From the NCBI GenBank assembly GCA_964640635.1, contig CAZXFD010000002.1, positions 26,153 to 90,152 on the forward strand: a stretch of DNA of 64,000 nt. The letters are read 5' to 3'. The stretch is from an uncultured Gammaproteobacteria bacterium (GTDB lineage: Bacteria; Patescibacteriota; Patescibacteriia; UBA1558; S5-K13). The number at the start of each line of letters is the position of its first letter. The stretch's first letter is position 1. This document shows, piece after piece, positions 39,089-63,977 of this stretch. Under the pieces are notes generated by a model. It had not been told where the DNA came from. It was given only the letters and a program-made list of their open reading frames with translations, and ran no database searches. The position numbers and the translations under genes are program-made.

Positions 39089-39310
39089 AAAATTAAAATA
39101 TAAGTGATTATTGGCTTATTTTACTATATTTAGAAATAAAATCAACTAAAACAACAGAGATCTAATATACTCAAAAACACCCCTATCTGGTCTCTTTACA
39201 TTTCTCGAAATAACTCGTGTTCTATTTCTCATCTCTTGCTTCATCCAGTCAAAATTTTGACATCTTGAATAGTTTAGCATTTGTTTTGATTCGTTTTTTT
39301 TCATACATTT

Positions 39311-39392
39311 AGTGTTTAGTCTTTTCCGCCAGCCAGCCCCGCTACGCGAAGCATGGCCGGGGAGGCGGATCAGCCTTGGGCTGAAGTGTTTA
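39311..39392. repeat. GC-rich ~82-bp structured intergenic repeat (copy B)
   Basis: Near-identical to 29013-29095, with 3-4 differences. It lies between the small merR-like gene and ileS. Confidence 0.7.
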
Positions 39393-39438
39393 GTAATTAG
39401 AACAAGTCTAAATCCTAATTACTAAAAACTAAAATCTT

Positions 39439-43600: not shown

Positions 43601-43836
43601 AAACTAATCTCTGATGACAAATCTAGATTATTAAAAATCTGGACCTGATAATTAACGAGAGGGGTTCCTGATGAGTTTGTAATTCCAATTGATTTGCGAT
43701 AAAGCCAAGAAGCATCCCACCAAGAAGCTTGGACTGAATTATTAACGCGGAGTAAATAAATCACGCCGAAGACAATCATGATGCCGATGACTATGGCTGA
43801 GATGTAGAATTTGTAATTTATTGATTTTAATTTCAT
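40654..43836 (-). CDS. Secreted/anchored DUF2341-domain protein with three LamG-type (concanavalin-A-like lectin) domains
   Basis: N-terminal TM/signal, then WLYRKSI...LRFTD..GNLLSYWIED (DUF2341 signature). Three LamG_3-type blocks each end in D[DE]VR[VI]Y[DN]YA.[ST].EQ[IV]..DY. Confidence 0.75.
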   Translation of the reverse strand: MKLKSINYKFYISAIVIGIMIVFGVIYLLRVNNSVQASWWDASWLYRKSIGITNSSGTPLVNYQVQIFNNLDLSSEISLGKIQDNLNDLRFTDINGNLLSYWIEDTTSTSVDVWLRIASIPESGISVYMYYGNSIASPGKSIIGTSSFPALSCKSILASGSSTGSGAYFVDFTNGYLADEQEVYCDMTDNDGGWMLVEPEMISSVISRYVEVHTETDSNGGVFYIFTHQDVGCDNNDTGATVQVTSTIQWDKVRAKHSLVNGKSYCWSMDGTGNYGGQRTNSNLETFLVGTDVVQNCVLSCEDPQFVIPPLTRCDDTAENYGIYNVVSERSFELISRRKNRTSVSGPALGLSCNDMNMTSKIENIYIKEDYLSYDDVSVGAFSGQELALGIAGVSAKLGSRIETLTPPILYYNFDEGYGTTTYNYGTTTNSGTIYGASWTSDGKFGKALSFYERADNYVSIPNVISGDNTHTISFWVKPTSDGVMFDMGGNEQDAYSFIKLTRSGLDVSYVPNNIINYDWRTYPYDFTLGRWYHIVIAKTGVGDNLNVYIDGKLLTIYIGTVGNMNVGSIMYLGKFHDDGLGIYGLLDEVRVYDYALSESQVKVDYNQGMTMVMGSTGTNTSASSDYCIPGDTSFCAPPVAEYKFEKKSGTLAYDTSGNNKNGEIFGANSVMGKFGSAMSFDGNDYINCGTIATSGEITVSMWFKNSDAESQKIIFDINGTNSRGHFAFNWLNNRPILYLANNNFRYFNSSAQNYLDGRWHHLVVYIAGTKPPDILNSKLYIDNNNIPADATISTEDPVARSNFFIRYNNSSGFNGDIDDVRIYNYARTPAQIAWDYNKGAPIAHYKFDECSDVVLHDESGNGLDGTITIGTDGSQSAAGTCTDNNTASAWYNGRNGKRKASLNFDGSDDYVDITTNGYTSNISVSFWFNTTSNNSEMVIFANGAGGTDVLDSIGLDKGLIFYSQNNYAKITINKFNDGLWHYAVLDVANKKIYVDGVDQFLVDSDIYKVSDEMLIGASYKGRIHGDFFSGKIDDLKIFNYAFTPEQVKLDYAGSAIKFN

Positions 43837-43895: not shown

Positions 43896-46800
43896 TTAGT
43901 TGTTATTTTTATTACTATTTCCGCTTGCTAAATCTCTTCTATAAACATATTCTACTGTAATCGTAAGTTGTGATGGACCTTCAGATTCCTCTCCTCCGCC
44001 TGATATTTGAGTTACTACAACATGCATTCCATCTTCACTTGTTAGATTTATATTTAAATCACCAGATTCAATATTTGCATAACCATTTGAACAATTTCCA
44101 CCAGATATTATTGCAAGCTCACTATTGTTTTTGTCTTCTAATCTGAGAGTTATACTTCCACCATCACCACACTTGTACTGTGCTTTAAGTTTCAAAATCT
44201 TAATATCCTCAGCCGGTTTCCATGAGTTTTCACCATTTCCCCAAACGCGAGTATCAACACGTGGTACATCAACATAAGCAGTGATAGTATCTCTTACCGC
44301 TGAATCAGGTAATATATAAGCAACCCCTTCAACATTTAGATCAACTGTATCTCCAGATTTTCCAACCTGCAACTTGTTTCCATTTGCTGAGATTACACCG
44401 TCAGAACTAAACATAAGTTCTGCAATACCAGATGACGTTCCACTTGCATTAAGTGTTGGCGAAATTACGACTCTTCCAAAAAAGTTTGCAGCAATATTAT
44501 TTTCACTAGCAACGACTGTCAAAGTAGTTGATGAAATATTTTGTGACATTGAAAAACTATCTAGAGCAACATTTTGTGGACTCATTAAAATATTTCCATT
44601 TCCATTTACCGACATTATTCTTGAACCATTGTTTTGTAAGACCCATAAATCATCATACTGTGCAACATTTCTATTGAAATCGTTTAGAATAAGCGCATTT
44701 GACCCTACAACTTTTCCATAATTGTCATGGCTTGTTGTAAGCTTTGTGCCACTTCCTAAATCAAAACTTAAATTACTTCCTGAATATAAATTGTAAGAAG
44801 ATGAAATAAGTGAAACTGCATTTATTGTTTCAAGATATTCAGTTGAACTTATGATATCACCAGTAAATGCTCTTGTTCTAATATCAGAATAATTTGAAGA
44901 TAAACGAGAATTCGAGATATCAATATGACTTAACAATCTTGAAGTTGAAGTTGCGCTCCAATTTTCATCATATAAATTCCAATTGATTGCAATGTCAGCA
45001 TTTCTTGTTTCAACAGAATTTAATTTCAAATCAACTAGACTTACGCTTGAAGTTGAGCCGGATGATAGATTTTCATTATCAAGTCCTGAGGTAATTTTTA
45101 TAGCAGATGATGAAGCATAATTTGGTGCAAAAGAAGATTTGTTATAATCAACTAATACGTTTGTCATTGCAAAACTAAATTTATCATATTCCGTGCTTGT
45201 TACTGATACTGCATTTATACTAACAACTTCTTGACCAATTTCGTCAGCATAGTTTGCAAGAGTAATGTTTGAAATAGAAGACTTGCTTGCTGCGACAACA
45301 GCTGGACGATTGATCTGGGTAATTCTTGTATTTTCTCTGCCTGAACCGACAATGTCAACAAATGGAATAAGTGTAACTTGTTCATTATATATTCCCGGCT
45401 TTACTGTAATGAGCCAACGATTGTTTGCACTGTTTAATTTTATCTTTGACAGAGCTTCACTGATACTTGTATAATCTCCACCTTGTTTTGCAACTACAAC
45501 TTCGTTTTGTCTATCGTTTGAAATAGCAAGAATTGAAGATGCGTCTGTTTTTGCAGTTGAAAGCAATACTTTATTTTCATCACTTCTCTCGCTAGTTACA
45601 AGTATTTCTCCAAGATTACTTATATAAATATAATTATCAACATTTGGAAGTAATGTAATTTGTTTAATTGGTTTTATAGAAATATGCGTTCCATTTACAT
45701 AAGCTTCGCCAGATGACAAGCTAGCTACAAGTGAATTTATACTCGTGGACTCCAACATAAATCCATCAATTACATAATGAGCAAGCTTGTTTCCATTTCC
45801 TGTAAAATCAATAAATGTTCCTATGTTTTCTAGAGTTTCAAACTTATCATTGGTGCTAAATAATTTTCCATTCTCACCAATATTTATATCAACGAGCATT
45901 CCTTTGAAAATATTACCACTTGATGTGATAACTCCATTTAAAGTTGCAATAGCAGATCCTGTTACATTTTGAATATTGTTGTTCATCACAATCATATCGT
46001 TGTCAGATGCAAAATTTACAATACCCTGACTCATCGAACCAATAAATTCATTTTCTGAAATTACAGGAGAAATTTTTCCAGCTGTTGTGTTTTCAATATT
46101 TATACCAACACCACTAGCTACTTCAGATATTATTCTATTATTGTTTATTACTGGGCCTGATCCTGCTATAGATACGACTGAAACATTACTTGCGGAGCCA
46201 ATTGACTTTAGAGAACAATTTTCAATTCTTGAATTATTTGCACCTATTACTGCTGGTGCGCTACTGCCAATAATTATTGTGCTAGAACTATTTTCACAAA
46301 TTACATCAACATAAGGTTTTAGAGTTATTGTTTCGCTATATTCACCTGATTTTATATTTATTACATATCTCTTTGATTCGCTATTGTCTGTAATTGATGA
46401 CATAGCAGACAAAATATTATCAAAATCTCCGCCAGTTTTTGCAACCTCTATTGTGTTTACATGATTGTTGAAATATCCAATTTGAACACTTATTGCAATT
46501 TGATCATGACCGCCCTCCATATCTTCCATTGCGATACCAATAACTCCTGCACCAAGCTTACTTGCCTTTTGAGCTTTTCCAGGTTCATTTGATGTAGTCA
46601 AATAATCACCCTTTTTAATAAGCCCATTTGATGCTGTAACATTTACCAGGCTTGCGCCCATTGTAACTATTGGCTTACCGGTTTCAGAATTTCCAGAAAT
46701 AAATGCCGGCTTCTCAGCTATTATTCCCAAAATATTTGAACTATTTGCGCGATCAGAAAGTTTTACACTATTGCCTTCATTAAGAACTACTACATCACCA

Positions 46801-49800: not shown

Positions 49801-52800
49801 TTTCCATAAACGATTGTTCCTGAAATTGATCTTATATTATCTCCCGTTCCATAATTAATATCAATTTTTGTCCATGCATCGGTATTATTTTGTATTGTGC
49901 CTATCATAGAATTATATGCTGCTGTTGTATTTGATGTATTTACATTAGTAGTCGTCTGAAAACTATCACTAAACAAAGATGCGTTAGAGAGTATTGAAGA
50001 ATAATTTGCTGTGATAGCATTGAATCTATCATTTAAAGAATTGTAGGTGCTTCTTCCAGAGACTACTTCGTCCACCCTATCACCAGATATATTTCCCAGA
50101 GCATTAACTACCGTGGTATTTCCAACAGCAAAACCATTTGAACTTGTGACTGTTCCTCCGACATTTATACTTGTATTAAAATTTACTACTGTATCTGCCA
50201 TGATATTTCCATCACCATCAAATTGTATATTTCCATTTAGTGTAAGTGCCTGAGATGGTGTAGTTGTTCCTATTCCCAAATACCCCGTATCAGTCATCAC
50301 AAATTGCGAGATACCATTTCCACTAGGATTAAATGACAAATAATTACTTGTTGTGCTATATCCCAAAAGTGCATAATTCCCTGCTACTCCAATATTAATA
50401 CTATTTGGTCCAAGATATAAATCTTTCCATCTATTGGTATCTGATCCTAGAGTATAAATATTATCAGCTGATGGTAAAATATTTCCAGTAAATGTTGCAT
50501 TTCCACCCACTGATAAATCTCCACTTATTGAGATGCTGTTATTTGAAAGCGTTAATAAATTTGCATTACTAGCTAATCCAATATTATTACCTGCAATTTG
50601 TACATTTCCGAAAGTAGATGTTCCAGCGACTGTCAAATCAGAGAATAAATTTACATTTCCACTTACAGCAAGCGTTCCTGATGCTGATATTTTTCCAACT
50701 GTCGTAATGTCACCACTTGACGCAGTAATAGTTGCACGTCCTCCTACTGATATATCTCCAGAAAAATTGGCACCCGAAAGAAGCGCATATGAAGAAGATG
50801 CAGCCATCCATATAGGATCTGATTCTGCTCCTGAGCCAACAGCACTTCCATTCCAATAAAGATTTCCTCCCAAATTATACAATGTATTTGTTGTTATTAT
50901 TGGTGTAGATGATGAAATACTTACGCCATTGTTTGATGCTATTAATCCCGTTACTGTTGTAGTTGCAAATGTTGCTATACCAGTAGATGTAATAGTTGCA
51001 CCACTTCCTATTATTAAGTTATTAGAAAATAAAGAATTACTATTTGCTTCATCTATAAGTAAAGCTCCATTTCCATATGTATAAGTTTGATCTGTTATAT
51101 TAATTTCAGCTAAAACTTGATCGCCCGTGCTAGAATACAGACCAATTATATTTTTGCCAGTTCCCTGAATATCTCCGACTATATTTACACTATCTACAGC
51201 AGCCGGCGCAAAAGTAATCATATTTCCACTTGGACTAATTACTAGATTTCCATAATTATCTGTTGCAAGAGTTGAATAATTTGAACTGTCATAACCCAAT
51301 GTTAATTGTGTTGTTGAAGTTACAATGTGAAGTCCTGCGTTTGGAGTAGTTGTTCCTATTCCGACATTTCCAGTATTGTAATAAATACTATTTCCATTTG
51401 ATGTCCATTGAGATCCTATATACTTAGAACCATTTACGTATAGATCTGTTGCATTTACAATACCATTTACGTCAAGTGTAAATGCTGGTGTGGTTGTTCC
51501 TATTCCTACGTTTCCAGTGCTTGGATTTACAGATATATTATTATAATGTATTACATCGTTCATTGAATCAGGTGAAGCTTCATAAACTACTAGTGGCATA
51601 TCTCCACCAGCATCATACAAACCAAATTCATCAGTAGAATATGAATTGTTATTACCCAGATATAAACCACCTCTACTAGAATCAAAACTTGTAAATCTAG
51701 CAGCTATTGAATCACTACTTGAAACATGTAAAGTGTTGCCAGGATCTACGGTTCCTATTCCAACATATCCATTTAATGGATTTACATATAACTGATTTGT
51801 GTTAACGCTAAAGCTTCCTGCGATCGTTGTAGAAGCAAGTGTTGTATTTCCAAGCATTACCAAACTATTTGTGCCAGTAGCATTTGTAAATGCAAGATTT
51901 GATATTGTTGATGAACTAAAATATCCATTTCCTATATCGACTCCGTTTAATATAAACGATCCTGTAATAGTTGTGCTAGCTAAATTTGTAATACCAAGAA
52001 CTGCTAAATTTCCAGTTGTAGTTGCGTTTGTTACTTGTAAATTAGCAAGAGTTGAAAGTCCTGAGACATTTAATGCTGACCCAATATAATAAGATCCCGT
52101 CGTTGTTCCATTTCCATATAAAAGCGCGTCTCCAGACACTGTTAATCTTGATAATGGCGTTGTTGTTCCTATTCCAATATATCCAGAATTAATATTTACA
52201 GAGATACCCGCATCGTCACTATATCCACCAAACTTATAAGCAGTTTGAGCTGAGTTCACACCAACTATTAATTCATCATTTACATTCCAACTCATGCCAA
52301 TCTCGCCACCTAATATATCATATCCAACATTTACATAATTACTTGTATATCTGTCACCAAAAATTCCATGATTAGCACGTAACTGACCTAAATAGTTATC
52401 TGATGAATAAACATCTAATGCATATTGTGGGCTTGTAGTACCAATACCCACATAACCATTTAATGGATTTATATATAACTGATTTGTATTTACTGCGAAA
52501 GCGCCCGTCACCGTTGTACTAGCAAGAGTTGATACTCCTAATACATTTAGATTATTTCCTACCACTAAATTATTAGTCACATTACTATTAGTTGAAGTAA
52601 CAACACCGCTAATGTTTAATCCACTTGTTAAAAGTGTTAATAAATTTGCATTACCAGATAGTCCAATATTATTTCCTGCAATTAACATATTACCCAGTGT
52701 CGATGTACTTGTTACTATTAAGTTTGTTGTTGTTACTGTATTTGATACCGTTAAAGAGTCAAGCATTGAAACTCCACTTACATTAAGTGATTCTGTTATT

Positions 52801-55800
52801 AAATTATTAATATAATGACTTCCTGTTGTTGTAGCATTTCCATATAAAAGCGCATCTCCAGACACTGTTAATTTAGATGTTGGTGTTGAAGTTCCAATTC
52901 CGACGTTACCATTATTGATAAATAGTCCGTCGCTAGAACTAAATGCTCCCCCATATTGATAAATACCTGTATTATAATTTTTACCAGCTATCATAAAATC
53001 ATTTGATACATCATAAAGACCGAGATCATCTCCATAAAAATCCCCACCAATATATAATTCTCCGACATAAGGATTTCCAACAAGAGCACTTGCTCCTGTA
53101 ATATTTCCTCCTTGTCCATCAAGCGTTATAAAATCTCCCACTGATAAAACAGCTGCAACCTTAAGATTATTATTAATCTGAAGATTATTACTAATAAATT
53201 GATTGCCCGTTATCGTAGAATTTCCCGTTATTGATAAATTGCCTGTGATTGTCGTACTAGCAAGCTTTGTAAATCCTGAGACTACTAAATTTCCAGTCGT
53301 TGTTGCATTTCCATATAACAGTGTGTCGCCAGATACTGTCAGTTTAGATGTTGGTGTTGAAGTGCCAATTCCAATATCTCCTAAGTTGATAGTTAATGCC
53401 CTACCTCCATACACAAATCTATTATCATCATAATCAAATCCAGCTATAACACCATCTCCATTGACCTCATAAAATCCTCCCTCATTTATATCTGAAAAAC
53501 TCCCAATATCTAATCCATCATTACTATTAAAACTAAATCTAGTGTAAGGATGATTTACTGCTGGTGCATAAGTATGAATATCTAGTCCACCACCACTATT
53601 CTGAAAATTTGTATAATTTAAAGAATCATAACCTAATTTAAGTTGCGCATTAGCGTTTAATATGTGAAGTGCTGATGATGGCGTTGTTGTTCCTATTCCA
53701 ACATATCCATTTGAATGATTTACGAATAAATCATTTGCACCAACTAAGAAATTATTTACTACCGTAGTTGTGTTTCCATTAAATATTGCATTACCATTTA
53801 CTGTAGTTGTGGCAAGAGTTGTATTTCCTAATATTACTAAACTTTGTGTTCCAGTTGCATTTGTAAATGCAAGATTTGATATTGTTGATGAACTAAAATA
53901 TCCATTTCCTATATCTACTCCGTTTAATATAAACGATCCTGTAATAGTTGTGCTAGCTAAATTAGTAAATCCAAAAACTGCTAAGTTTCCAGTTGTAGTT
54001 GCGTTTGTCACTTGTAAATTGGCAAGAATTGAAAATCCTGAGACATTTAATCCATTTGTTACTGCAAGTTGAGAAATTGTTGAAGTTGCAAGTGTACTAG
54101 TACCAACGACTGTTAATGTTCCTGTAAAGTTTGCGGAAGACGAAATTGTTTGACCATTTATAAGACCTGAGCTTATTGTTCCAATATTTACAAGATTACC
54201 ACTTGCATCAATTCTTTGTGTTCCAGAGTCTGCTCCAGTATTAATTCCTGTTGTACCATTGATTACAGATCCAGTAATTGTATTATTTGTAAGTATGGTT
54301 CCAAATCCTGTATTAATAGATCCTGAATTTAATACTCCTACTCCAGTTAAAGATGAATTTACAATATTTGACGGCAATGTTGTTGTGCTAAACCATGTTG
54401 ATAATGATAAATATATTGTAGAGGCCGTAGAGCCTAATAAGTATCCTGCATCTGCATGATTGCCCCATCCATATGCACTATTCCAGTTCATTGAATTACC
54501 GCCAAAAGCAGAAATAATTCCAGTTGCATCAAATGTTCCTGCGACTGATGTGCTAGCTAAACTTGTATTTCCTGATACATATAGATTGGTACCGGTTGCA
54601 CTTCCAAATGTTAAATTAGTAAATGTTGATGATGTGCTAATAAACGACCCATTAATAGTTCCGCCCACCGTTAAATTTCCACTTACCGCTTGATTACCAG
54701 TTGTCGTTGCATTACCATTTACTACCAATGTTCCATTTATTGTAGTCGTAGCTAGAGTTGAGGTTCCAGTGACAATAAGTGTATCATCAACTATTACATC
54801 ACCCAGGTTTGCAGCTGATAAGACAAGATTCAAATCAAGATATGCAGAATTCGTTTGAACATATAATGCTGACTCGCTCTTTATATAACTTGCACTGCTA
54901 TTTGTAAATATCAAATCATTTGCAATTGCAACATTTCCTACCGCTTCAAATGATACAGGATTAAACATACTTATTTGAGTATCTGATATTCTCATTGCTT
55001 CATTACTTCCTGCTGTAATACTTATTGTATTATCAGAGTATCTATAGAATCCTGTATCAGGATCTCCTATAAACGCAATTGAAGGAGTTGTTGAAGAACC
55101 ATCACTTACAAAAAGCGTTCCCGCTACTACCGCATTACCACTTACATACATTTGAGTTGAAGTAACTATTCCATCTATTTGAAGGCCACTATTTGCAAGT
55201 GTTAGTAAATCTGCATTTCCTACTAGTCCAATATTATTTCCTGTAATTTGTACATTTCCTAGTGTACTTGTTCCTACAACTCTTAAATCAGAATGCATAG
55301 TTGCATTTCCAGTTACTGCGAGCGTTCCTGATGCTGATAAAGTTCCTAGTGTTGTAATATCACCCGATGAAACTGTAATTGTTGCGCGTGAGCCAAGTCC
55401 GATAATTGTTCCATTGTCATATACTGATGAAGTTGCTGTTGTAGTTGCCGTGACATATCTTAATAAATAATTTGCGACTCCTGCTCCTGATAGTTTGTTA
55501 TTAAACATTGACCAATCAGAATTTTGAAGCTGACCAGTATTTACGGATGATGCTATTGGCATATTAAATGTATGAGTAGAACCAGATGAGACAATGTTAA
55601 AAATATTTCCGCTTGTTCCTGTTGCAAAATTCTGAGCTGAGCTTGTAAGACCATTTAAATTAACTAGTGCATTTCCTCCTACTATTGTAGAAGTAGATAC
55701 CCACTGCGTGCTAGTTCCTGTAGATCTTAAAACCATGCCATCTGATCCCGCACTATTTGTCGAATCATTGAGTGACCCTGAAAGTGACAAAGATGCAATT

Positions 55801-58800
55801 GTCGTCGTAGCTAAAGTTGATATCCCAGATACATTTAGATTTCCAGAGACTATTTGATTTCCTGATGTTGTAGCATTGCCTGATACTACTAATCCTGATG
55901 TTATTCTAAGAGATCCTACGATTGTTGAACTTGCACCACTTGGACTTACTGTCAAAAATCCATTCGCATTTGTATTTATATTTGTATAATTTCCTGCACT
56001 ATTTTCTAATGTCAATTGTGTTGTTGTTGTAACCACATGAAGACCTGCATTTGGAGTAGTTGTTCCTATTCCTACATTGCCAATATTATAATAAATACTT
56101 GCTCCGTTTGTAGTCCATTGAGATCCTATGTAAGGTGATCCATTTACATATAATGCTGTTGCATTTACAACTCCATTTACGTCAAGTGTAAATCTAGGAG
56201 TAGTTGTTCCTATTCCTACATTGCCATCACTATTTACTACAAATATTCCTTGATTTGTAGTTGTTGCAATTTGTAATAGATTTTCAGTTGAGCTAGAGCT
56301 TACTACTGATAATTTGTAATTTGGTGTAGTTGTGCCAATGCCTATAAAACCTGTTGATCCAGCAGTATCTGCATATAACACATCTGTAACAGAAGTTCCG
56401 TTATATCCTCTTATTCTAAAATCCGCATTAGGAGAATATGCTCCCCAAACACCAGACGACAAATATCCCATTCTAGATCCACCCGTATCACTAACATATC
56501 CATTTGCTCCAACTCTTATAGATCCATTAATCTCTAATGCTAGCGCTGGATTGGCGATACCAATTCCAACTCTATTATTTACACTATCAATAACTAAGGT
56601 ATTTGAATCAAAATTAACATCTCCACCTATCGTAGTTGTTACCGTTCCATTTATTACTACGGCTCCCGCGATAGTTGTGCTAACTAAATTCGTAAATCCC
56701 AATACTACTTGATTACCAGTTGTTGTTGCATTTCCATTAACTTGTAATGTTCCATTTATTGTAGTCGATGCAAGTATTGTATTTCCTAAAACCATTAATG
56801 CTCCTGAGTTATAAATTCCAGTAGATGTGACAACTCCACCTATTGCAATTCCTGTATTTGATAATGTTAATAAATTTGAATTTCCGCTCACTGCGATATT
56901 TAATCCATTAAACAATAAACCGTTGATTGTTGTTGTAACTCCTCCATCAACAATCAAATTTGAAATAGTGGTTGTTGCAAAATCACTTGTTCCATCTACT
57001 ATTAAATTTCCTGTCATTGTATCACCTGAGACATTTACAAATAATGAATCTGCGGAACTCGTTGTATGATATCTATTATCTAAACTTGTTGAAGAAATTG
57101 TTGATATATGACCATAGTTATCAAGAGCTATACTTTGAATTACTGTGCCACCCAAATTTGTCTGTCCTAGTGCAGAAGAAACCGCGTGATTTATTGCAAT
57201 TGATCCTGCGCCATTTACTATTGAAATAAGTGACCCCTGAGTAAGCGTTCCTATAGTAGGGGCTCCCGTTCCATCTCCAATTAATAATTCACCATTTGCA
57301 AACACTCTTGTTGCATTTATTTCACCCGTTCCATTTCCTAATAATATTCCGCCAGACGTAAATGTTGTTGTTCCTGTTCCACCGTATGGAACCCCTATAA
57401 TATTTCCGCCCCAAGTAGCGTTTGTAATTGTTCCAGTAACTGACAAACTACCATGAATATTTGTGGTGCCATATAAGTCAATCGTTGGAGCTGTAAGTGC
57501 TATTCGTAAACCAGCACGACTTAAGATTTGTGAAGATCCATCAAGAGCTGATAAAGTAATACTTCCCCCAGAAGAATTTGTTTGTATAGATATTCCCTTA
57601 CCATCCAAATCATTTGGAACTAAAAGACTTATACTCTCTTTTGAATTCATTGAAAGAGTGCTACTAGAGTTTAATGATATTGTATGTTGAGATTCCAATC
57701 CCAAAGCTCCAAGATTTCCAGATGTTATAACTTTCAAAGATTGATCCGGACTTGTTGTGAAATTCATAACATTAGAATTGTCTTGAATAACCTTTTTTCC
57801 ATTTACATATAAAGAGCTTGGTCCTAAATGTAATTCATCAGTGTAAATATCTTTAAACTGATGTGTTTCATCACCCAACATTATAAGAGACACATTTGTT
57901 GTAACACTTCCTGTCATGTCAGGTATTACATTTCTTGTAAGGGTTGTTGTTGCAAGTGTCGTGTATCCCGTCACTACCAAACTTTGTGTTCCAGTTGCAT
58001 TTGCAAAAACTAGATTATTAATCGTAGATGAGGTAAATAATCCAGTTCCAATAACCGTTCCATTGATTGTTAAATTTCCATTAATTGTTGTAGTTGCTAA
58101 ATTGGTAAATCCTACTACTGCAAGATTTCCAGTTGTTGTAGCATTTGTAACTTGTAAATTTTGTAAATTACTTGTTCCAGTTACAAATAAATTACTTGCC
58201 AAGGTTGTTGTTCCACCATTTGGGGTAACGCGTAAATCGCCGAATGAATTTGTTCCAAATGTTACATATTTACTTTCGCTATACCCTAGCGTAAATTGTG
58301 TTGTTGAGTTTGATACAACATGAAGGGTTGAAGATGGTGCTTCTATACCTATTCCAATTCTGCCACCTACAATTGGCGTTGGGTTTGTTGCATCATGATT
58401 ATATATTCCTGTTCCATATAATACATTTCCAATATTTAATTGTCTCTCTGCGCTATTTGCTGTTCCACGACCAATAGCAATACTATCTGAATATCCTCCT
58501 GTAGAAGTGTATCTGCCTATAAGAATTGATGTTCCGTAATTTTGGGTGTTATCAACTCCATCATTATTACCTGCATTTGTTCCTATAAAAATAGAGTCGC
58601 TTGCATTTATTGCTCGAGAACCTGCATAATAACCCAGAAAGTTTGAGTTAGATGCATTTGTTGCTTCAGCACCAGCAGCCTGTCCAAAGAAGTTTGAGTT
58701 AGATGCATTTGTTGCTTCAGCACCAGCAGCCTGTCCAAAGAAGTTTGAGTTAGATGCATACTCTGCACGAGCACCAGCAGCCTGTCCAAAGAAGTTTGAG

Positions 58801-61800
58801 TTAGATGCATTTGTTGATCTATCACCAGAATATTGTCCGAAGAAGTTTGAATCAGCTGCATTTTCTGCACGAGCACCTGAATATTGCCCAAGAAAATTTG
58901 AGTTAGATACACTTGATGCACCAAAGCCAGCATCACTACCAACAAATAAATTTGTGCCGTCTGCTGATATATTTACTATTGTATTTCCTAGCAATATCTT
59001 TCCACTAGCTGAGGTTGCTACAAGATCTCCACTTGAGTTTGTTGAAAGAGTTGAATAATTTGAACTGTCATAACCTAATGTTAATTGTGTTGTTGAGGTT
59101 ACAATATGTAGTCCTGCATTTGGAGTAGTTGTTCCTATTCCTACATTTCCAGAATTATAATAAATACTATTTCCAAATGTTGTCCATTGAGACCCTGTAT
59201 ACTGAGAACCGTTTACGTATAAATCTTTTGCATTTACAATACCATTTACATCAAGTGTAAATGCTGGAGTAGTTGTTCCTATACCAATTCTTCCATTTAA
59301 TACATTTGCAAATAATAAACTTGTTCCAACTAAGAAATTTCCAGTAACTGTAGTAGATGATAATGTTGTTGTTGCAAGCGTACTTAATCCGGTAACTGTT
59401 AAATTAGAAATTGAGGTGCTAGCTAAAGTTGAGGTTCCAAATACATTTAAATTATTTCCCACTATCAAATTATTTGTTACATAACTATTTGTTGAAGTAA
59501 CGACACCAGTAATATTTAATCCACTATTTGAAAGCGTCAATAAATTTGCATTTCCAGATAAACCAATACTACTTCCTGATATTTGAATATTTCCCAATGT
59601 GCTTGTTGACACAACAGAAAGAGATCCTACTGTTTCAATATTTCCACTAATTGCAGAAATTGTTGCATTTGCTCCTATGATTAAGTCAGAGGACGCATAT
59701 AATTTTCCTGTTATATATGTATTAAGCCCCGATGGTGCAATTGTAAGATTTCCAGTACTGCTTACAGTAAACGAAGAATAATTTGATACATCATAGCTAA
59801 GTCTTAGTTGTTCTGTCGTACCACCAACATTAAGTCTTGCAAGGGGTGTTGCAACGTTTACACCAACATTTCCATTTGAATCAACTTTTATTCCTTCATT
59901 GCCACCATCACCAGAAAGCCAATAATTTCCAAGTCTAATATTTTGAGTTGCTATATGAGTTCCAAAATCATCACCAGTTGAAGTTGCAGTTCCACAATCT
60001 CCCGATTTTGCCAAAATATCTCCATCTGGACTAACATACAAACAACGATTTCCTAATCCTTCACCAGCAAGATCTGTTGTTCTAATAGTTCCAGCAACAT
60101 TTAATGCTTGAACCAATGAACTTGTTCCAATACCAACCTTATGATTTACTGAATCAACATAAAGCGTATTATTATCAACTACAAATAACGTCCTCGTTAT
60201 AGTAGCATTTCCACCTATGTATGCTGAATTAGTTACAGACAATTGTGAAATTGTTGTACTAGCTAAATTTGTAAATCCTAATACTACAAAGTTGTTTGAT
60301 ATTGTTGAACTTGCAACTGTAAGTTCGTTTAAGTTTGTTGACCCTGAAATATTTAAACTTGTTCCCGAAATAGCTGCAAGATTTGATGTACTTGATACCG
60401 TAAGACTTGATAGTGCAAGTGTTGTTCCTGTTGCGCTTGTATAAGTTAATGATTGAAGTGTTGTATTTCCTTGAATTTGTAAATCACCAGAAGCAATAAT
60501 ATTTCCTGCTAAATTAATTGTTCCTGTTGCAACTATTCCACTAGTAACCGCTAATTGTCCGTTTACTGTTGTGCTTGCAAAAGTAGCAATTCCATTTAAT
60601 AGGATAGAATAATTATTTGCTAATATAGAATTATTACCAATTTCTAAATTATTATTAAATGTCGATACTCCATTAACTAATAAATTTGAAATTGTTGTAG
60701 ATGCCAATGTGCTTGTTCCATTTACCGTTAGGTTTCCAGAAATTGTTCCACCACCTAATCCTAAATACATTGAACTAGCTGTAGCTACTGTTAAGTAATC
60801 TGCATCATTTGTCCATTGTCTAATTGTTGATGTTGCAAAATTTGAAACTGATAAGCTTGTTGAGACGGCAGACCAATATGGATCTGATTCTGTATATGAT
60901 GTTAAGTATCCTGCGAGTGAATGGTCACCCCAACTATATGCATCGTCCCAAAAAGATGAAGATGCTGAAACTATATTATATGACTCATTCCATTGTAATG
61001 AATTACCACCTATTACTGATATAAGATTTGATACATACAGATTTGTCCCTGTTGCAGATGTGAAGTTTAGTGTTGTAAGTGTAGTAGATGATAATGTTGT
61101 AGTAGCTAAATTCGTAATTCCAAGTGAGGTAAGTGATGAAGTAACTGTTGCGGTTCCTGCAACTAATTCTGTTGATGTTGTATGCTCTGATTCTAAATTT
61201 GTAAATCTTCCGATTAATGCTGTGATGGTGTTTTCTATTGTTGCATTTACTGCTCGTAGTATAGAAGCAAATAAATTTGTTGAAGTTACGCTTATTCCTG
61301 ATGCATTTCTAAATGTTAAAGTATCTATATTTAAATTTGTTCCTGTTGCTGAATTGAATGTAAGGTTTGTAATTGATGTAGATGCAATTGTAATATTTCC
61401 TAAATTTAGACCTCCTGTGATTGCAAGATTGTTTAATGTTGTTGTGCCAAATACATTCAAGTTTCCTGATACAACTTGATCTCCTGTTGTTGTTGTATTA
61501 CCTGATACTATTAAACTTGAAATAGTTGTGCTAGCTAAATTTGTAACTCCTAATACTACAAAGTTGTTTGATATTGTTGAACTTGCAACTGTAAGTTCGT
61601 TTAAGTTTGTTGACCCTGAAATATTTAAACTTGTTCCCGAAATAGCTGCAAGATTTGATGTACTTGATACCGTAAGACTTGATAGTGCAAGTGTTGTTCC
61701 TGTTGCGCTTGTATAAGTTAATGATTGAAGTGTTGTATTTCCTTGAATTTGTAAATCACCAGAAGCAATAATATTTCCTGCTAAATTAATTGTTCCTGTT

Positions 61801-63977
61801 GCAACTATTCCACTAGTAACCGCTAATTGTCCGTTTACTGTTGTGCTTGCAAAAGTAGCAATTCCATTTAATAGGATAGAATAATTATTTGCTAATATAG
61901 AATTATTACCAATTTCTAAATTATTATTAAATGTCGATACTCCATTAACTAATAAATTTGAAATTGTTGTAGATGCCAATGTGCTTGTTCCATTTACCGT
62001 TAGGTTTCCAGAAATTGTTCCACCACCTAATCCTAAATACATTGAACTAGCTGTAGCTACTGTTAAGTAATCTGCATCATTTGTCCATTGTCTAATTGTT
62101 GATGTTGCAAAATTTGAAACTGATAAGCTTGTTGAGACGGCAGACCAATATGGATCTGATTCTGTATATGATGTTAAGTATCCTGCGAGTGAATGGTCAC
62201 CCCAACTATATGCATCGTCCCAAAAAGATGAAGATGCTGAAACTATATTATATGACTCATTCCATTGTAATGAATTACCACCTATTACTGATATAAGATT
62301 TGATACATACAGATTTGTCCCTGTTGCAGATGTGAAGTTTAAGTCAGAAATAGTGGTTGAAGCAAATGTTAAATTCCCAAGAGTTGTATTTCCATTAATA
62401 ACTAAATTATTTAAAGTTGTTGTTCCACTGACTGTCAAGTCCGTAATTGTTGTTGTTGCAAGAGTGCTCGTTCCAGTTACGGTAAAATCTCCATCAACAA
62501 AAGATGAAGAAGCAACTCCAGTTCCAACTCCAACAGGATCTCCATTCCAATAAAGAATTCCGTTTATATTATAAAGTGTGTTTGCTGTAACAAGTGGCGT
62601 TGAAGATGCAATTGTAATTCCATTTTGCATCACACTAATTTCTGATGCAATTATATTTGCAAAAGTTGAAGTGCCACTTACTGTCAAATCATTACTTATG
62701 CTTGTTGTAGAAAGATTCGTTATTCCAGAGACTGCCAAATTTCCAGAAATATTTTGGTTGCCAGAAATATTTATAGCATTTGCAAATGTAACATTTCCAT
62801 TAAATATTACATCGTCTTCAAATCTAGCACGAGCTGTTACTATAACCCCTGCATTTGTATCGCTTGATACTGTAAGCGCATCTGAAACAGATAAGTTTTC
62901 TACTGCTAAAAAACGCGAAACGCTCAAATCCCGCATTAGAACTTGAGCTGTATATGTATTTGTATTAGTCCATGTATTATTTGACTCCAGTGACGCACCA
63001 TTTTGAATAATAGTTGTAGAACCACCACCTGACCCACTAGGTCCCATTGGACCCGCCGGACCAGTAGCACCAATATCTCCTTTTGCTCCTTTATCTCCTT
63101 TGGTGCCATTATTACCTGCAACTCCTCTTGGTCCCATTGGACCAGCAATACTAATTCCCTCAGATTTAACAACATTTTGAATAATTGTATCTCCATAACT
63201 ATTACTATAATAATTTTGAATAATAGGAGCATCTGGATTATATGAATAAAAATTTTGAGATTTTTCTAAATCTGCAAGATCAGTTATTGAATTTGCAAAG
63301 TTTTTCCAAAAAGCTAAATTTGCATTCTCACTTCTTTTTGTAAGTTGTATAGAAAATCTATAAGGACTCTGTCTATAAAAATTAATTTTATCTAAAATAT
63401 TTAAAACTATATTTGTCTGACTAAGCTTTACACCATTTTTAGAAAAAACTGATTCTTTCATTCCCAATACTCGAGATTTATTTTGATCGTTTTCTAGATT
63501 AGAGCTATAAGATAAAAATTTATTTTGTAATTTATTAACATTAACTTTTCCATTTTCAAGAACATTAAAATCTTCTGAAATTTTTACAAGATTATTTTTA
63601 TAAGAATCAATTTGATAATCAGATGAATTAAAAACAAAATATACTTGCTCTGGAGTTTCAATATATTTTGATTTTAGAGATTCATTAAACAAACCAACTT
63701 TCTCAAATAAATTTTCTAAATTATTTTTATAAGAATAAAAAAGTTTGTCTACTGCAACCTGAGTAGATTCTTTTATTGAGTTTTCATTTTTGGAGAAACT
63801 TGCAATTGCAAGGGGAGAAAAAGTTTTTGTGATAATAAGAATTGCAACAAGTGCAACAGAAAAATTTAGAGATCTAATAAATTGATCTAGGGAATAATTT
63901 TTATTAAATTTAAAAGTTGGTAATTTTTTATCTTGAGAGATTTTTGCAAAACTAATATTTCTAAAATTATTACCCAA
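43896..63977 (-). CDS. Giant (~6,693 aa or more) cell-surface fibre/adhesin-like protein: N-terminal signal anchor, collagen-like Gly-X-Y segment, very long Thr/Ser/Gly/Asn-rich beta-helical repeat array with tail-fibre-like motifs, a beta-propeller-like region, and C-terminal pectin-lyase-fold (PbH1) beta-helix domains
   Basis: A single uninterrupted 20,082-nt ORF. The annotated start is a TTG at 63977, but the frame stays open to the window edge, so the gene may begin beyond 64000. Also: TM LNFSVALVAILIITKTFSPLAIASF; GPMGPRGVAGNNGTKGDKGAKGDIGATGPAGPMGPSG; recurring NVGIGTTTPNAGLHIV...LTLGYDSSNYS modules; C-terminal GGD[FY]..I..A......[ST]....R[WY][LV]I.[IV]K.G.Y.E.[IV]TL and NNNRII...G.GI.I.N pectate-lyase-like turns. 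Confidence 0.85.
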   Translation of the reverse strand: MGNNFRNISFAKISQDKKLPTFKFNKNYSLDQFIRSLNFSVALVAILIITKTFSPLAIASFSKNENSIKESTQVAVDKLFYSYKNNLENLFEKVGLFNESLKSKYIETPEQVYFVFNSSDYQIDSYKNNLVKISEDFNVLENGKVNVNKLQNKFLSYSSNLENDQNKSRVLGMKESVFSKNGVKLSQTNIVLNILDKINFYRQSPYRFSIQLTKRSENANLAFWKNFANSITDLADLEKSQNFYSYNPDAPIIQNYYSNSYGDTIIQNVVKSEGISIAGPMGPRGVAGNNGTKGDKGAKGDIGATGPAGPMGPSGSGGGSTTIIQNGASLESNNTWTNTNTYTAQVLMRDLSVSRFLAVENLSVSDALTVSSDTNAGVIVTARARFEDDVIFNGNVTFANAINISGNQNISGNLAVSGITNLSTTSISNDLTVSGTSTFANIIASEISVMQNGITIASSTPLVTANTLYNINGILYWNGDPVGVGTGVASSSFVDGDFTVTGTSTLATTTITDLTVSGTTTLNNLVINGNTTLGNLTFASTTISDLNFTSATGTNLYVSNLISVIGGNSLQWNESYNIVSASSSFWDDAYSWGDHSLAGYLTSYTESDPYWSAVSTSLSVSNFATSTIRQWTNDADYLTVATASSMYLGLGGGTISGNLTVNGTSTLASTTISNLLVNGVSTFNNNLEIGNNSILANNYSILLNGIATFASTTVNGQLAVTSGIVATGTINLAGNIIASGDLQIQGNTTLQSLTYTSATGTTLALSSLTVSSTSNLAAISGTSLNISGSTNLNELTVASSTISNNFVVLGVTNLASTTISSLIVSGNTTTTGDQVVSGNLNVFGTTTLNNLAITGGLNLGNITIASTSITNLTFNSATGTNLNIDTLTFRNASGISVTSTNLFASILRAVNATIENTITALIGRFTNLESEHTTSTELVAGTATVTSSLTSLGITNLATTTLSSTTLTTLNFTSATGTNLYVSNLISVIGGNSLQWNESYNIVSASSSFWDDAYSWGDHSLAGYLTSYTESDPYWSAVSTSLSVSNFATSTIRQWTNDADYLTVATASSMYLGLGGGTISGNLTVNGTSTLASTTISNLLVNGVSTFNNNLEIGNNSILANNYSILLNGIATFASTTVNGQLAVTSGIVATGTINLAGNIIASGDLQIQGNTTLQSLTYTSATGTTLALSSLTVSSTSNLAAISGTSLNISGSTNLNELTVASSTISNNFVVLGFTNLASTTISQLSVTNSAYIGGNATITRTLFVVDNNTLYVDSVNHKVGIGTSSLVQALNVAGTIRTTDLAGEGLGNRCLYVSPDGDILAKSGDCGTATSTGDDFGTHIATQNIRLGNYWLSGDGGNEGIKVDSNGNVGVNVATPLARLNVGGTTEQLRLSYDVSNYSSFTVSSTGNLTIAPSGLNTYITGKLYASSDLIIGANATISAISGNIETVGSLSVVSTSTLGNIQISGSSIGLSGNANLLTLSNSGLNITGVVTSTNSYVTNNLIVGNNLNVFGTSTLASTSISNLTVTGLSTLATTTLSSTTVTGNFLVGTSLLFANVLNGRIGIGTTTPAFTLDVNGIVNAKDLYVNGSQYTGSQWTTFGNSIYYNSGNVGIGTTTPNAGLHIVTSTTQLTLGYDSSNYSTLSTNSSGDLVATSASGKILLGNTIVNISADGTNLFVGSDAGFGASSVSNSNFLGQYSGARAENAADSNFFGQYSGDRSTNASNSNFFGQAAGARAEYASNSNFFGQAAGAEATNASNSNFFGQAAGAEATNASNSNFLGYYAGSRAINASDSIFIGTNAGNNDGVDNTQNYGTSILIGRYTSTGGYSDSIAIGRGTANSAERQLNIGNVLYGTGIYNHDATNPTPIVGGRIGIGIEAPSSTLHVVSNSTTQFTLGYSESKYVTFGTNSFGDLRVTPNGGTTTLASNLFVTGTSNLQNLQVTNATTTGNLAVVGFTNLATTTINGNLTINGTVIGTGLFTSSTINNLVFANATGTQSLVVTGYTTLATTTLTRNVIPDMTGSVTTNVSLIMLGDETHQFKDIYTDELHLGPSSLYVNGKKVIQDNSNVMNFTTSPDQSLKVITSGNLGALGLESQHTISLNSSSTLSMNSKESISLLVPNDLDGKGISIQTNSSGGSITLSALDGSSQILSRAGLRIALTAPTIDLYGTTNIHGSLSVTGTITNATWGGNIIGVPYGGTGTTTFTSGGILLGNGTGEINATRVFANGELLIGDGTGAPTIGTLTQGSLISIVNGAGSIAINHAVSSALGQTNLGGTVIQSIALDNYGHISTISSTSLDNRYHTTSSADSLFVNVSGDTMTGNLIVDGTSDFATTTISNLIVDGGVTTTINGLLFNGLNIAVSGNSNLLTLSNTGIAIGGVVTSTGIYNSGALMVLGNTILASTTINGTLQVNGNATTTGNQVVLGFTNLVSTTIAGAVVINGTVTTTIGGDVNFDSNTLVIDSVNNRVGIGIANPALALEINGSIRVGANGYVSDTGGSRMGYLSSGVWGAYSPNADFRIRGYNGTSVTDVLYADTAGSTGFIGIGTTTPNYKLSVVSSSSTENLLQIATTTNQGIFVVNSDGNVGIGTTTPRFTLDVNGVVNATALYVNGSPYIGSQWTTNGASIYYNIGNVGIGTTTPNAGLHVVTTTTQLTLENSAGNYTNINTNANGFLTVSPSGASSTIVGSLRITSGLVVSGNATTSGNQIVSGNLNVSGISTLATTTIASLSLSGSLNDSTNSAGSDGMVLRSTGTSTQWVSTSTIVGGNALVNLNGLTSSAQNFATGTSGNIFNIVSSGSTHTFNMPIASSVNTGQLQNSDWSMFNNKLSGAGVANYLLRYVTATTTATSSVYDNGTIIGLGSRATITVSSGDITTLGTLSASGTLAVTGNATMHSDLRVVGTSTLGNVQITGNNIGLVGNADLLTLANSGLQIDGIVTSTQMYVSGNAVVAGTLFVSDGSSTTPSIAFIGDPDTGFYRYSDNTISITAGSNEAMRISDTQISMFNPVSFEAVGNVAIANDLIFTNSSASYIKSESALYVQTNSAYLDLNLVLSAANLGDVIVDDTLIVTGTSTLATTTINGTLVVNGNATTTGNQAVSGNLTVGGTINGSFISTSSTFTNLTFGSATGTNLYVSGNTSLASTSVAGTFDATGIISAFGGNSMNWNSAYGWGNHADAGYLLGSTASTIYLSLSTWFSTTTLPSNIVNSSLTGVGVLNSGSINTGFGTILTNNTITGSVINGTTGINTGADSGTQRIDASGNLVNIGTISSGLINGQTISSSANFTGTLTVVGTSTLATSTISQLAVTNGLNVSGFSILANLQVTNATTTGNLAVFGFTNLASTTITGSFILNGVDIGNGYFSSSTISNLAFTNATGTQSLVILGNTTLATTTVNGNAIFNGNTTTVVNNFLVGANDLFVNHSNGYVGIGTTTPSSALHILNANAQLKLGYDSLNYTNFQNSGGGLDIHTYAPAVNHPYTRFSFNSNDGLDIGSFSDINEGGFYEVNGDGVIAGFDYDDNRFVYGGRALTINLGDIGIGTSTPTSKLTVSGDTLLYGNATTTGNLVVSGFTKLASTTITGNLSITGNSTITGNQFISNNLQINNNLKVAAVLSVGDFITLDGQGGNITGASALVGNPYVGELYIGGDFYGDDLGLYDVSNDFMIAGKNYNTGIYQYGGAFSSSDGLFINNGNVGIGTSTPTSKLTVSGDALLYGNATTTGSHYINNLITESLNVSGVSMLDSLTVSNTVTTTNLIVTSTSTLGNMLIAGNNIGLSGNANLLTLLTSGLNISGVVTSTNSNVTNNLVVGNNLNVLGVSTLASTTVTGAFAVNTNQLYINPLNGYVGIGTTSPQYALDVYSSDNYLGQLRANHGIFGDRYTSNYVNVGYDILGGEIGMSWNVNDELIVGVNSAQTAYKFGGYSDDAGISVNINSGYIGIGTTTPLSRLTVSGDALLYGNGTTTGSYYIGSALNVSGLSTLANLQVTNATTTGNLAVLGITNLASTTITGSFILNGVDIGNGYFSSSTISNLAFTNATGTNSLVMLGNTTLASTTIAGSFSVNTNQLYVNPLNGYVGIGTVDPGNTLHVSSSDSIAARFTSFDSSRGGLYLGNNNSYSTDEFGLYDAGGDMPLVVYEASPDSMNDVIHYNNISVNPSTGNVGIGTTTPAFTLDVNGIVNATDLYVNGSKYIGSQWTSNGNSIYYNTGNVGIGTTTPNAGLHIVTSTTQLTLGYDSSNYSTLATDNYGNLVISPSGNMITFAPAAVDSVNIVGDIQGTGKNIIGLYSSTGDQVLAEINITDQTYTYGNGALLIDEANSNSLFSNNLIIGSGATITSTGIATFATTTVTGLIASNNGVSISSSTPIITTNTLYNLGGNLYWNGSAVGSGAESDPIWMAASSSYALLSGANFSGDISVGGRATITASSGDITTVGKISASGTLAVSGNVNLFSDLTVAGTSTFGNVQIAGNNIGLASNANLLTLSNNSISISGDLSVGGNATFTGNILPSADNIYTLGSDTNRWKDLYLGPNSINIGVAGNYALLGYSTTSNYLSFNPSGNGISQFVMTDTGYLGIGTTTPSQALTLNGNIQFDGDGNIMADTVVNFNTSINVGGTVTSSNGFAVGNTTVVNALGNISGDRVDEVVSGRSTYNSLNDRFNAITANYSSILSNASLFSDSFQTTTNVNTSNTTAAYNSMIGTIQNNTDAWTKIDINYGTGDNIRSISGTIVYGNKLYVATYGYGIKVLNLDTEAIVGQWTATSTPSLAQVNFTSIAYDYDRNDIYAGFYSAGPGLVKIDVDANTITTYTTANGLKSNTIGNQLGNVMQYYNGKVYLFPSGSYMQVFNVVSGTFTDYDNSPDSGLPSGSYYDVQAYGNELHISTSVGFYIWNMDTDTLVKRYYSNGPQGLYNYTNVIYSSWQDPDDSDIVWLSSASSWQKLSKTNGWQEFHRVDQEISLNTSLYWIRKIGGQLWFGGYSSYRPDGYLVYDLNAENYFVISGTQKILGNAIFTSSYHQRPLYYNGYYYFSIYAFADIYKSQLAYEASNIFETNVIVSSANNITSAKLTYSGGVGTGNSINWYLSADNGVHWEGPVTPNVLWEFTNIGTQVKAKAVMTAGVGTTPIIRGITVTAFDGDTWAGEGSNTVETEVLQARNSSSYGIFGSLDLRLEDIDTKISLAVTSTHTHDDRYLQVSGGTVSGSVIVSGNITSNNLYTSADSTYNLGTSTAYWLNTYSDNLYLNSTAYLSGTTAGAIAVNGNLGVGTSSPSSKLDVYVASPSANQRLFNIGTSGNASRFSVDAEGDYFYDGTGSSPSADYAEYFYTTNIDLVSGEVVCIDVSRNNSVIRCNRSSDTNIMGVVSTKPALLGNAKEEYRDNNNYKMIALLGQIPGRVSNENGNINPGDSLTSGSRSGYLMKANPGDSTVGIALESLSASEGSINVLISRRNKSLTVEQIESQITDRIANMEIEDEVAIMISNAIGSYNFASTTQILINDSLATVYSSLDQTSDTVAILADEINKLKGLDYKTNVWDFISDASSMGNLYQVNLQTANSYGFGDFNDIYVTGENATGYSIYNKLSTVYDGKAQTAFGNYTELQTSDEVDVNYGSYIVSASDSKAGTQIGQYINLNSASTTNWAIFVDNLGGKSYFGDNVLVGSEVPVLSWTEFNMTGDDLFVKGDIGIGGNMFVDGALSVKGNAEFLGDLLVIGDIYSSGSFKSSNSGYAQMMELTNSNFEYGDVVVLNEGNSVKLSDRANSSNILGIIAEKPAFISGNSETGKPIVTMGASLVNVTASNGLIKKGDYLTTSNEPGKAQKASKLGAGVIGIAMEDMEGGHDQIAISVQIGYFNNHVNTIEVAKTGGDFDNILSAMSSITDNSESKRYVINIKSGEYSETITLKPYVDVICENSSSTIIIGSSAPAVIGANNSRIENCSLKSIGSASNVSVVSIAGSGPVINNNRIISEVASGVGINIENTTAGKISPVISENEFIGSMSQGIVNFASDNDMIVMNNNIQNVTGSAIATLNGVITSSGNIFKGMLVDINIGENGKLFSTNDKFETLENIGTFIDFTGNGNKLAHYVIDGFMLESTSINSLVASLSSGEAYVNGTHISIKPIKQITLLPNVDNYIYISNLGEILVTSERSDENKVLLSTAKTDASSILAISNDRQNEVVVAKQGGDYTSISEALSKIKLNSANNRWLITVKPGIYNEQVTLIPFVDIVGSGRENTRITQINRPAVVAASKSSISNITLANYADEIGQEVVSINAVSVTSTEYDKFSFAMTNVLVDYNKSSFAPNYASSSAIKITSGLDNENLSSGSTSSVSLVDLKLNSVETRNADIAINWNLYDENWSATSTSRLLSHIDISNSRLSSNYSDIRTRAFTGDIISSTEYLETINAVSLISSSYNLYSGSNLSFDLGSGTKLTTSHDNYGKVVGSNALILNDFNRNVAQYDDLWVLQNNGSRIMSVNGNGNILMSPQNVALDSFSMSQNISSTTLTVVASENNIAANFFGRVVISPTLNASGTSSGIAELMFSSDGVISANGNKLQVGKSGDTVDLNVEGVAYILPDSAVRDTITAYVDVPRVDTRVWGNGENSWKPAEDIKILKLKAQYKCGDGGSITLRLEDKNNSELAIISGGNCSNGYANIESGDLNINLTSEDGMHVVVTQISGGGEESEGPSQLTITVEYVYRRDLASGNSNKNNN
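58590..58900. repeat. 51-bp tandem repeats (~6 units) inside the giant gene encoding the 17-aa repeat NSNFFGQAAGAEATNAS
   Basis: Units start at 58641, 58692 and 58743; adjacent units are nearly identical. The protein reads DSNFLGQYSGARAENAA / DSNFFGQYSGDRSTNAS / NSNFFGQAAGARAEYAS / NSNFFGQAAGAEATNAS x2 / NSNFLGYYAGSRAINAS. Confidence 0.8.
60217..62760. repeat. Tandem direct duplication of ~1,272 bp (two ~424-aa protein repeats) inside the giant gene, near-identical
   Basis: The identical antisense pseudo-ORFs 60824-61024 and 62096-62296, and 60259 vs 61531, are all offset by exactly 1272 nt. There is one visible substitution (VNPNTT vs VTPNTT). Confidence 0.8.

Follow-up and report, generated by a model that had tools for sequence, protein, structure and literature searches.

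The question raised by this locus is how one gene came to hold two base-identical copies of a long coding segment. The DNA studied was a stretch of 64,000 nucleotides (nt) from contig CAZXFD010000002.1 of GenBank assembly GCA_964640635.1 (positions 26,153 to 90,152, forward strand), here called the window, and the gene is a giant minus-strand reading frame that would encode a fibre-like surface protein. A repeat search, a profile of identity at an offset of 1,272 nt and a self-BLASTN comparison all located a perfect tract, in which positions 60276-61069 equal positions 61548-62341 over 794 nt with 0 mismatches. This tract is the longest exact repeat within the window, the runner-up internal DNA repeat being 246 nt long at 91% identity, and the repeat at this offset is far beyond chance. 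The copies lie in direct orientation with a start-to-start spacing of exactly 1,272 nt, or 3 x 424, and the giant reading frame is intact across both of them. The original prediction, made from the sequence alone, was thus correct in placing a direct, frame-preserving repeat at this offset, and the 794 nt without a mismatch bear out its view that the repeat is internal, near-perfect and very recent. It had been built on two pairs of antisense open reading frames (ORFs). One pair (60824-61024 and 62096-62296) is offset by 1,272 nt at both ends, and the other (60217-60444 and 61528-61716) keeps that offset at its right end only.

The extent of the duplication turned out to differ from what had been predicted, namely a 1,272-bp tandem duplication consisting of two consecutive, almost identical blocks of ~1.27 kb. 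A wider match could be drawn between 60246-61069 and 61518-62341 (824 nt, 99.6% identity, 3 mismatches). Beyond the tract, however, identity at the 1,272-nt offset falls abruptly to about 20-45%, roughly the level for unrelated DNA of the same composition. Of each 1,272-nt period, 794-824 nt are common to both copies and the remaining 448 nt are single-copy. Gapped local alignment of this 448-nt spacer (61070-61517) against either outer flank gave chance-level scores only, and a blastp search with it found only low-complexity matches of ~30% identity; these two analyses rule out the spacer as a diverged copy of a flank. The layout is A-B-A (Y-A-B-A-X on the plus strand) and not A-B-A-B. A single tandem duplication of 1,272 bp would need identity over the whole period, and the predicted interval of 60217-62760 overshoots the repeat, since 60217-60245 and 62342-62760 are unrepeated. 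The elements of the locus are as follows, residues being numbered along the part of the reading frame that lies in the window.

43896 to 64000, minus strand: in-window part of the giant surface-protein gene; the ORF is listed as 43896-63977 and has no stop up to the window edge.
61548 to 62341, minus strand: perfect 794-nt tract, copy A1 (N-proximal), residues 546-810, LNFTSATGTNLYV...WGDHSLAGYLTSYTESDP...NNFVVLG; 0 mismatches to 60276-61069.
61518 to 61547, minus strand: linker motif V-TNLASTTIS, directly C-terminal of A1; 27/30 nt identical to 60246-60275, 28/30 to the copy at 51963 and 27/30 to that at 53940.
61070 to 61517, minus strand: spacer B, single-copy, 448 nt; 149 amino acids (aa), residues 821-969, coding coordinates 61071-61517.
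61089 to 61118, minus strand: linker motif ITNLATTTLS, at the C-terminal end of spacer B and just N-terminal of A2; 25/30 identical to the motif at 60246.
60276 to 61069, minus strand: perfect 794-nt tract, copy A2 (C-proximal), residues 970-1234.
60246 to 60275, minus strand: linker motif F-TNLASTTIS, directly C-terminal of A2; carries all three mismatches of the wider match and is 26/30 identical to the copies at 51963 and 53940.

At the protein level, the duplicated peptide is 265 aa long (LNFTSATGT...NNFVVLG), or 275 aa when the linker motif is included. The 424 aa that the original prediction gave as the size of the duplicated unit are instead its period, made up of 275 duplicated aa and the 149-aa unique spacer. 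The full product, of 6,890 aa, was returned by an exhaustive HMMER search, comes from a 305,536-bp NCBI contig and is referred to here as P0034. The window ORF is identical to the C-terminal part of P0034, so the gene starts ~590 nt outside the window; the first 197 aa are encoded beyond position 64000, and P0034 numbering equals window-ORF numbering + 197. Both A copies fall inside P0034, where the 275-aa units are residues 743-1017 and 1167-1441.

The edges of the repeat were informative as to its origin. All three mismatches of the 824-nt match (60252, 60258 and 60275; T/A, A/G and A/C) are confined to the 30-nt leftward extension, and the chance that three random post-duplication substitutions would all fall in those terminal 30 nt is ~1e-4. 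The extension encodes a linker motif (...G-x-TNLASTTIS...) that recurs throughout the giant protein, where it separates modules. Because this edge 30-mer occurs elsewhere in the gene at comparable similarity, the recent event is best delimited as the perfect 794 nt, and the 27/30 edge was probably not part of the recent copy. In-register protein similarity continues for ~30-50 aa past both edges, at 30% and 43% against a background of 9% (P = 0.004 and 0.0009), so the two copies occupy equivalent, motif-bounded slots.

One interpretation of these data, and the one that we consider probable if some way from certain, is that one 265-aa shaft module was very recently copied, non-reciprocally, within a gene whose 6,890-aa product would be a fibre-like surface protein anchored in the membrane of a member of the Patescibacteria (candidate phyla radiation, CPR). 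An A-type module would have been copied into a second slot 424 residues away, with the unique 149-aa segment left between the two. The route could have been gene conversion of an older module that already occupied the neighbouring slot, or duplicative insertion by template switching, and in either case the short linker motifs, which are homeologous (alike but not identical), would be where the exchange was resolved. Non-reciprocal copying is favoured because both ends of the tract abut linker motifs and the spacer is single-copy. Simple unequal crossover does not fit, because it would have duplicated the whole period including B.

Several points weigh against this interpretation. The copying mechanism is inferred, and conversion or template switching is read solely from where the identity stops. 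As DNA, the linker motifs on the N-terminal side share only ~57% identity, which is little for RecA-type exchange to work on. Searches of GTDB representatives, JGI metagenomes, IMG/VR and the protein index turned up neither an ancestral nor a sister allele. The gene region is present in one assembly only, P0034 being a singleton cluster on one contig, and both the copy number and the A-B-A order rest on the assembler. The assignment as a fibre at the surface draws on weak, sub-threshold domain matches, and a single-sequence AlphaFold2 model of the module was unusable (mean predicted local distance difference test score, pLDDT, 38.9).

It could instead be that the whole 1,272-bp unit was duplicated in tandem to give A-B-A-B and that the second B was then precisely removed or replaced. 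The period is divisible by 3, and both events could have been mediated by the linker motifs that lie at the A|B and B|Y boundaries. This course would, however, need two independent in-frame rearrangements, both recent enough for 794 nt to have stayed free of substitutions, and the second B has left no trace in either flank; we regard it as decidedly unlikely. The non-reciprocal copy also fits what is seen elsewhere in the gene, in which further internal repeats are dispersed, gapless and in frame, at 72-92% identity over 200-250 nt (for example 51261-51506 with 59040-59285, and 51835-52074 with 53812-54051). Since such repeats are many, dispersed module copying appears to be the habitual evolutionary mode of this gene. 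One recent module copy within so repetitive a gene is a common way for such proteins to evolve.

A programmed variation system that actively maintains the identity for its function was also considered, either the template and variable repeat pair of a diversity-generating retroelement (DGR) or a site-specific cassette. Both DGRs and variable surface proteins occur commonly in CPR genomes. A DGR pair, however, would be ~100-150 nt long, differ at adenines and have a reverse transcriptase gene close by, whereas here the tract is perfect over 794 nt, and the three differences are not adenine-specific and lie in a linker motif. Neither a reverse transcriptase nor a recombinase domain came up in Pfam searches of the giant protein and 20 neighbouring ORFs, and no Rfam element was found in the window. 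A DGR or programmed cassette was rejected because of the difference pattern and because the scanned ORFs showed no reverse transcriptase domain, and we give this explanation next to no weight.

The module itself, which begins with LNFTSATGTNLYV and ends with NNFVVLG, has a single copy of the motif FWDDAYSWGDHSLAGYLTSYTESDP (WGDH..GYLTSYTESDP). As judged from its sequence matches, this motif, W-x-x-AYSWGDHSLAGYLTSYTESDP, is phage-tail-fibre-like. Searched against an index of 5.8 billion proteins, the module returned only eight short tail-fibre-like proteins (P0001-P0008), matched through the motif alone, one of them with an Mtd_N domain and one with Phage_cement_2. In a representative library of 1.84 billion proteins, 818 matched at an expectation value (E) of at most 1e-3, most of them across module residues ~30-75, and often with many matches in one protein. 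PHROG 9729 (tail fiber; phrog_9729) matched module residues 32-144 with E = 3e-7. The search for module homologues thus gave motif-level matches only, and the rest of the 265-aa module had no detectable relative beyond this protein family. No Pfam or NCBIfam match to the module was obtained and no significant sequence relative in the PDB, the best being an LpxD beta-helix at E = 0.33. The module carries one copy of the motif that phage tail-fibre-like proteins hold in arrays (NW[DN]xAYxWGDHxxxGYLTSYTE[ST]DP; P0001-P0008, phrog_9729). Unlike those proteins, it is encoded on a cellular chromosome and not by a phage, and the motif has neither a Pfam family nor a solved structure.

An older member of the same module type was found within the giant protein:

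53796 to 54614, minus strand: old paralogue A3, residues 3122-3394, ~30% identical to the module (blastp E = 1e-27); starts LTFGSATGTNLYV, with WGNH replacing WGDH.

At ~30% identity this third copy marks the module type as old. The locus therefore combines highly diverged older modules with a perfect tract whose sharp edges lie in short motifs, as in intragenic gene conversion and concerted evolution of bacterial adhesins.

Relatives of the locus were sought in other genomes. The unit with its spacer had no relative in GTDB species representatives or JGI metagenomes, the module had none in IMG/VR, and exact look-ups of the 1,060-aa protein encoded next to the giant gene, of IleRS and of P0034 returned no contigs. 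A search with the N-terminal 545 aa recovered only an orthologue of 39% identity (P0028/P0184), from the Patescibacteria metagenome-assembled genomes (MAGs) GCA_028692545.1 and GCA_028708725.1. In this orthologue the WGDH module forms a true tandem array with a period of 423 nt (141 aa) and copies that are 97-99% identical. Scaffold gaps of 100 N fall inside the array in both assemblies (contigs JAQUXC010000008.1 and JAQVYI010000015.1), at differing repeat positions (L083, 12423-12522; L084, 6846-6945), so the gene is annotated as 'partial' fragments. Such WGDH arrays defeat short-read assembly.

Two long-diverged lineages, each with its own near-identical copies of the WGDH module, suggest recurrent lineage-specific amplification or concerted evolution, and homogenisation independent in each lineage is again a likeness to the adhesins. 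The original prediction had raised ongoing concerted evolution as a possibility, and the independent near-identical array in the 39%-identical orthologue lends it support of an indirect kind. The independent homogenisation of the same module type in so distant an orthologue is one suggestive addition to what is otherwise a single module copy. A broader proposal can be built on it, which we offer as speculative and rather doubtful: WGDH shaft modules in this family of giant Patescibacteria fibres would be kept near-identical within each genome, and diverge between lineages, through frequent intragenic recombination, giving these episymbionts periscope-like variation in the length or reach of a host-attachment fibre, with the A-B-A layout and the 423-nt array as two snapshots of that process.

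Since the source is metagenome-assembled, the assembly itself had to be weighed. The second copy could be an artefact that arose when the repeat was wrongly joined or expanded too far, or when two strain variants were merged into a chimera; the 794-nt repeat exceeds a typical short-read length, and one assembly only contains it. Against this, assemblers usually collapse identical repeats and do not expand them. A adjoins spacer B on either side, and any linear genome with B therefore needs at least two copies of A. The frame is exactly kept, both junctions stand at biologically sensible motif boundaries, and independent Logan assemblies reproduce flanking sequence, in that short-read contigs of SRR10083296 and SRR10083310 match the window at 100% over 11.1 kb and 4.6 kb. 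An artefact is for these reasons considered very unlikely. Note that the Logan contigs enter the gene from its 3' end and stop after ~8 kb, well short of the repeat, and that one of them terminates exactly in exact repeats of at least 31 nt (39322-39355 and 51880-51938). The matches indicate that the population is real, and the contig ends that de Bruijn assemblies fragment at such repeats.

Error in the other direction is conceivable, in that the true locus could be a tandem array of greater length, X-(A-B)n-A-Y (n of at least 2), that the assembler collapsed and that would vary in length in a periscope-like way. A-B-A is what a single traversal of an assembly-graph loop yields, and because that traversal is the minimal one the true copy number could be higher. 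The population's short-read contigs break at every exact repeat of at least 31 nt, and the orthologue in two other MAGs has a true near-identical WGDH array that is bridged only by N gaps. On the other side, extra copies are without direct evidence, the deposited contig extends over 305 kb with the locus free of gaps in the window, and the other internal repeats of the gene are dispersed, apart from one array of 51-nt units. A longer array is therefore thought unlikely, and a non-reciprocal copy of one module remains the preferred reading. Whatever the number of units, perfect intragenic repeats of 0.8 kb make copy number in short-read MAGs unreliable, and the annotation and comparison of giant genes should allow for this.

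With two copies in place, the 794-bp identity would be an efficient substrate for homologous recombination, by which exactly 1,272 bp (424 aa) could be lost or regained in frame, yielding length variants. A recO gene is present inside the window, alongside a repeat suited to RecA-type recombination. Phase variation, which the original prediction had proposed, is the wrong term for this outcome: since the 1,272 nt are removed or added in frame, the length of the product would be altered and not its expression state. The extracellular fibre would hold two identical modules.

Variable-length surface stalks have been documented mainly in cultured pathogens, and the locus bears comparison with them. 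Periscope Proteins (SasG/Aap, Rib and alpha C, Sgo_0707, Esp, CdrA) are bacterial surface stalks of variable length, for which high DNA identity between long repeats has been argued to enable changes in repeat number and hence variable projection from the surface (PMC8201768). The likeness consists in a putatively elongated, repetitive surface protein, long repeats of ~100% DNA identity and a frame-preserving unit, and the 423-nt near-identical tandem array of the orthologue fits that class better than A-B-A does. Unlike in Periscope Proteins, there are only two copies and they are non-adjacent, with the 149-aa unique segment between them; the membrane segment is N-terminal, whereas their wall anchor is C-terminal; the module is no recognised globular Pfam domain; and the host is an uncultured CPR bacterium and not a pathogen. 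Membership of the class is not established, because the copies are two only and non-adjacent and no variation is documented on the one contig. Should the copies recombine, the idea of the variable-length surface stalk would extend to the candidate phyla radiation.

The product outside the repeat was also consistent with a fibre. Two further elements lie N-terminal of A1:

63798 to 63866, minus strand: hydrophobic segment NFSVALVAILIITKTFSPLAIAS, residues 38-60, read from the translation; conserved in the orthologue P0028.
63024 to 63143, minus strand: collagen-like G-X-Y stretch, residues 279-318, from a regular-expression map; Pfam Collagen E = 9e-5, under the gathering score.

The hydrophobic segment NFSVALVAILIITKTFSPLAIAS is presumed to be a membrane anchor. 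The collagen-like stretch gave weak PHROG matches to tail-fibre and collagen-like minor-tail proteins, and the PHROG matches of the giant protein as a whole are weak and local (E = 1e-7 to 1e-8), driven by this stretch and by the WGDH motif. For thousands of residues the protein is S-, T-, G- and N-rich, and short motifs recur in it. The label of giant fibre given in the original prediction appears reasonable, as the product looks fibre-like in its collagen G-X-Y stretch, its weak tail-fibre PHROG matches and a WGDH motif common to tail-fibre-like proteins.

Giant surface proteins are prime candidates for host attachment in CPR bacteria. Giant membrane proteins of 1,392-4,163 aa, with a presumed role in host attachment, have been described in CPR epibionts such as Vampirococcus lugosii (PMC8080830). 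The present protein resembles them in being a very large, apparently membrane-localised and fibrous surface protein of a reduced-genome member of the Patescibacteria, with a presumed part in host recognition or attachment. The protein differs from them in being larger, at 6,890 aa, and in having a collagen-like stretch, WGDH and GIGT motifs and a pectinesterase-like beta-helix where they have WD40, TPR and PKD domains.

Three other segments of the giant protein were recorded. A tandem array of six 17-aa (51-nt) units with 65-80% identity (58581-58937, minus strand) encodes ...SNSNFFGQAAGA[RE]A.NA..., a motif that by eye resembles the YadA-head or Hep_Hag repeats of trimeric adhesins and that had no Pfam match. 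Near the C terminus, at 45252-45500 (minus strand), two stretches matched the pectinesterase family (PF01095, E = 3e-11), a right-handed beta-helix, and this region may form a carbohydrate-binding or carbohydrate-degrading tip domain. Outside the window, the presumed cytoplasmic N terminus of P0034 (residues 1-197) holds two copies of a ~64-aa segment (…ATRYCSYTQEYLSLRARQGKLKSVKIGRNWMT…). Its counterpart in the orthologue (L084, 4001-4600) gave a weak, sub-threshold match to Pfam HTH_17 (E = 1e-3), its two copies being 86% identical as DNA. It would be unusual for a giant extracellular fibre to have a DNA-binding-like domain tethered to it.

The genomic neighbourhood identifies the window as a segment of a cellular CPR chromosome. 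It encodes ileS (IleRS), tgt (TGT), ackA (acetate kinase), gap (GAPDH), argS (ArgRS), gatB (GatB) and recO (RecO), together with a PFOR subunit, a protein of the aspartate/ornithine carbamoyltransferase family and many glycosyltransferases, at a GC content of ~30%. Its IleRS is at most 58% identical to that of any GTDB species representative, the best matches being to Falkowbacteria, Magasanikbacteria and Parcubacteria MAGs (Patescibacteria). A closely related NCBI MAG has AckA, ArgRS, GatB and TGT proteins that share clusters, at a 90% identity threshold, with those of the window (P0010, P0012, P0016, P0018). A blastn search with 59800-62800 found no match among 50,697 phage records. A phage origin of the locus was rejected on the lack of a phage DNA match and of an IMG/VR relative and on the housekeeping and glycosyltransferase genes around it.

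Some further features of the neighbourhood were noted in passing. Immediately downstream of the giant gene, at 40654-43836 (minus strand), lies the gene for the 1,060-aa protein, which has a DUF2341 domain and three Laminin_G_3 (concanavalin-like lectin) domains; it may act as a lectin at the surface in partnership with the fibre. Another very large ORF (16728-22493, minus strand; 1,921 aa) had no Pfam match, contains internal repeats at 20197-20702 and 21422-21610, and sits among glycosyltransferase and O-antigen-ligase-like genes. A scan of the window with Rfam gave no matches. A GC-rich element of ~75 nt occurs at two intergenic sites on the minus strand (29019-29111 and 39307-39399; 94.6% identical), one just upstream of ackA and the other between a 74-aa MerR-like gene and ileS. 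On the strand of these genes it forms a strong predicted hairpin pair (-35.9 kcal/mol, z = -2.9) with no Rfam match at gathering thresholds. Candidate identities are a regulatory or terminator element in repeated form and a small palindromic repeat that is mobile.

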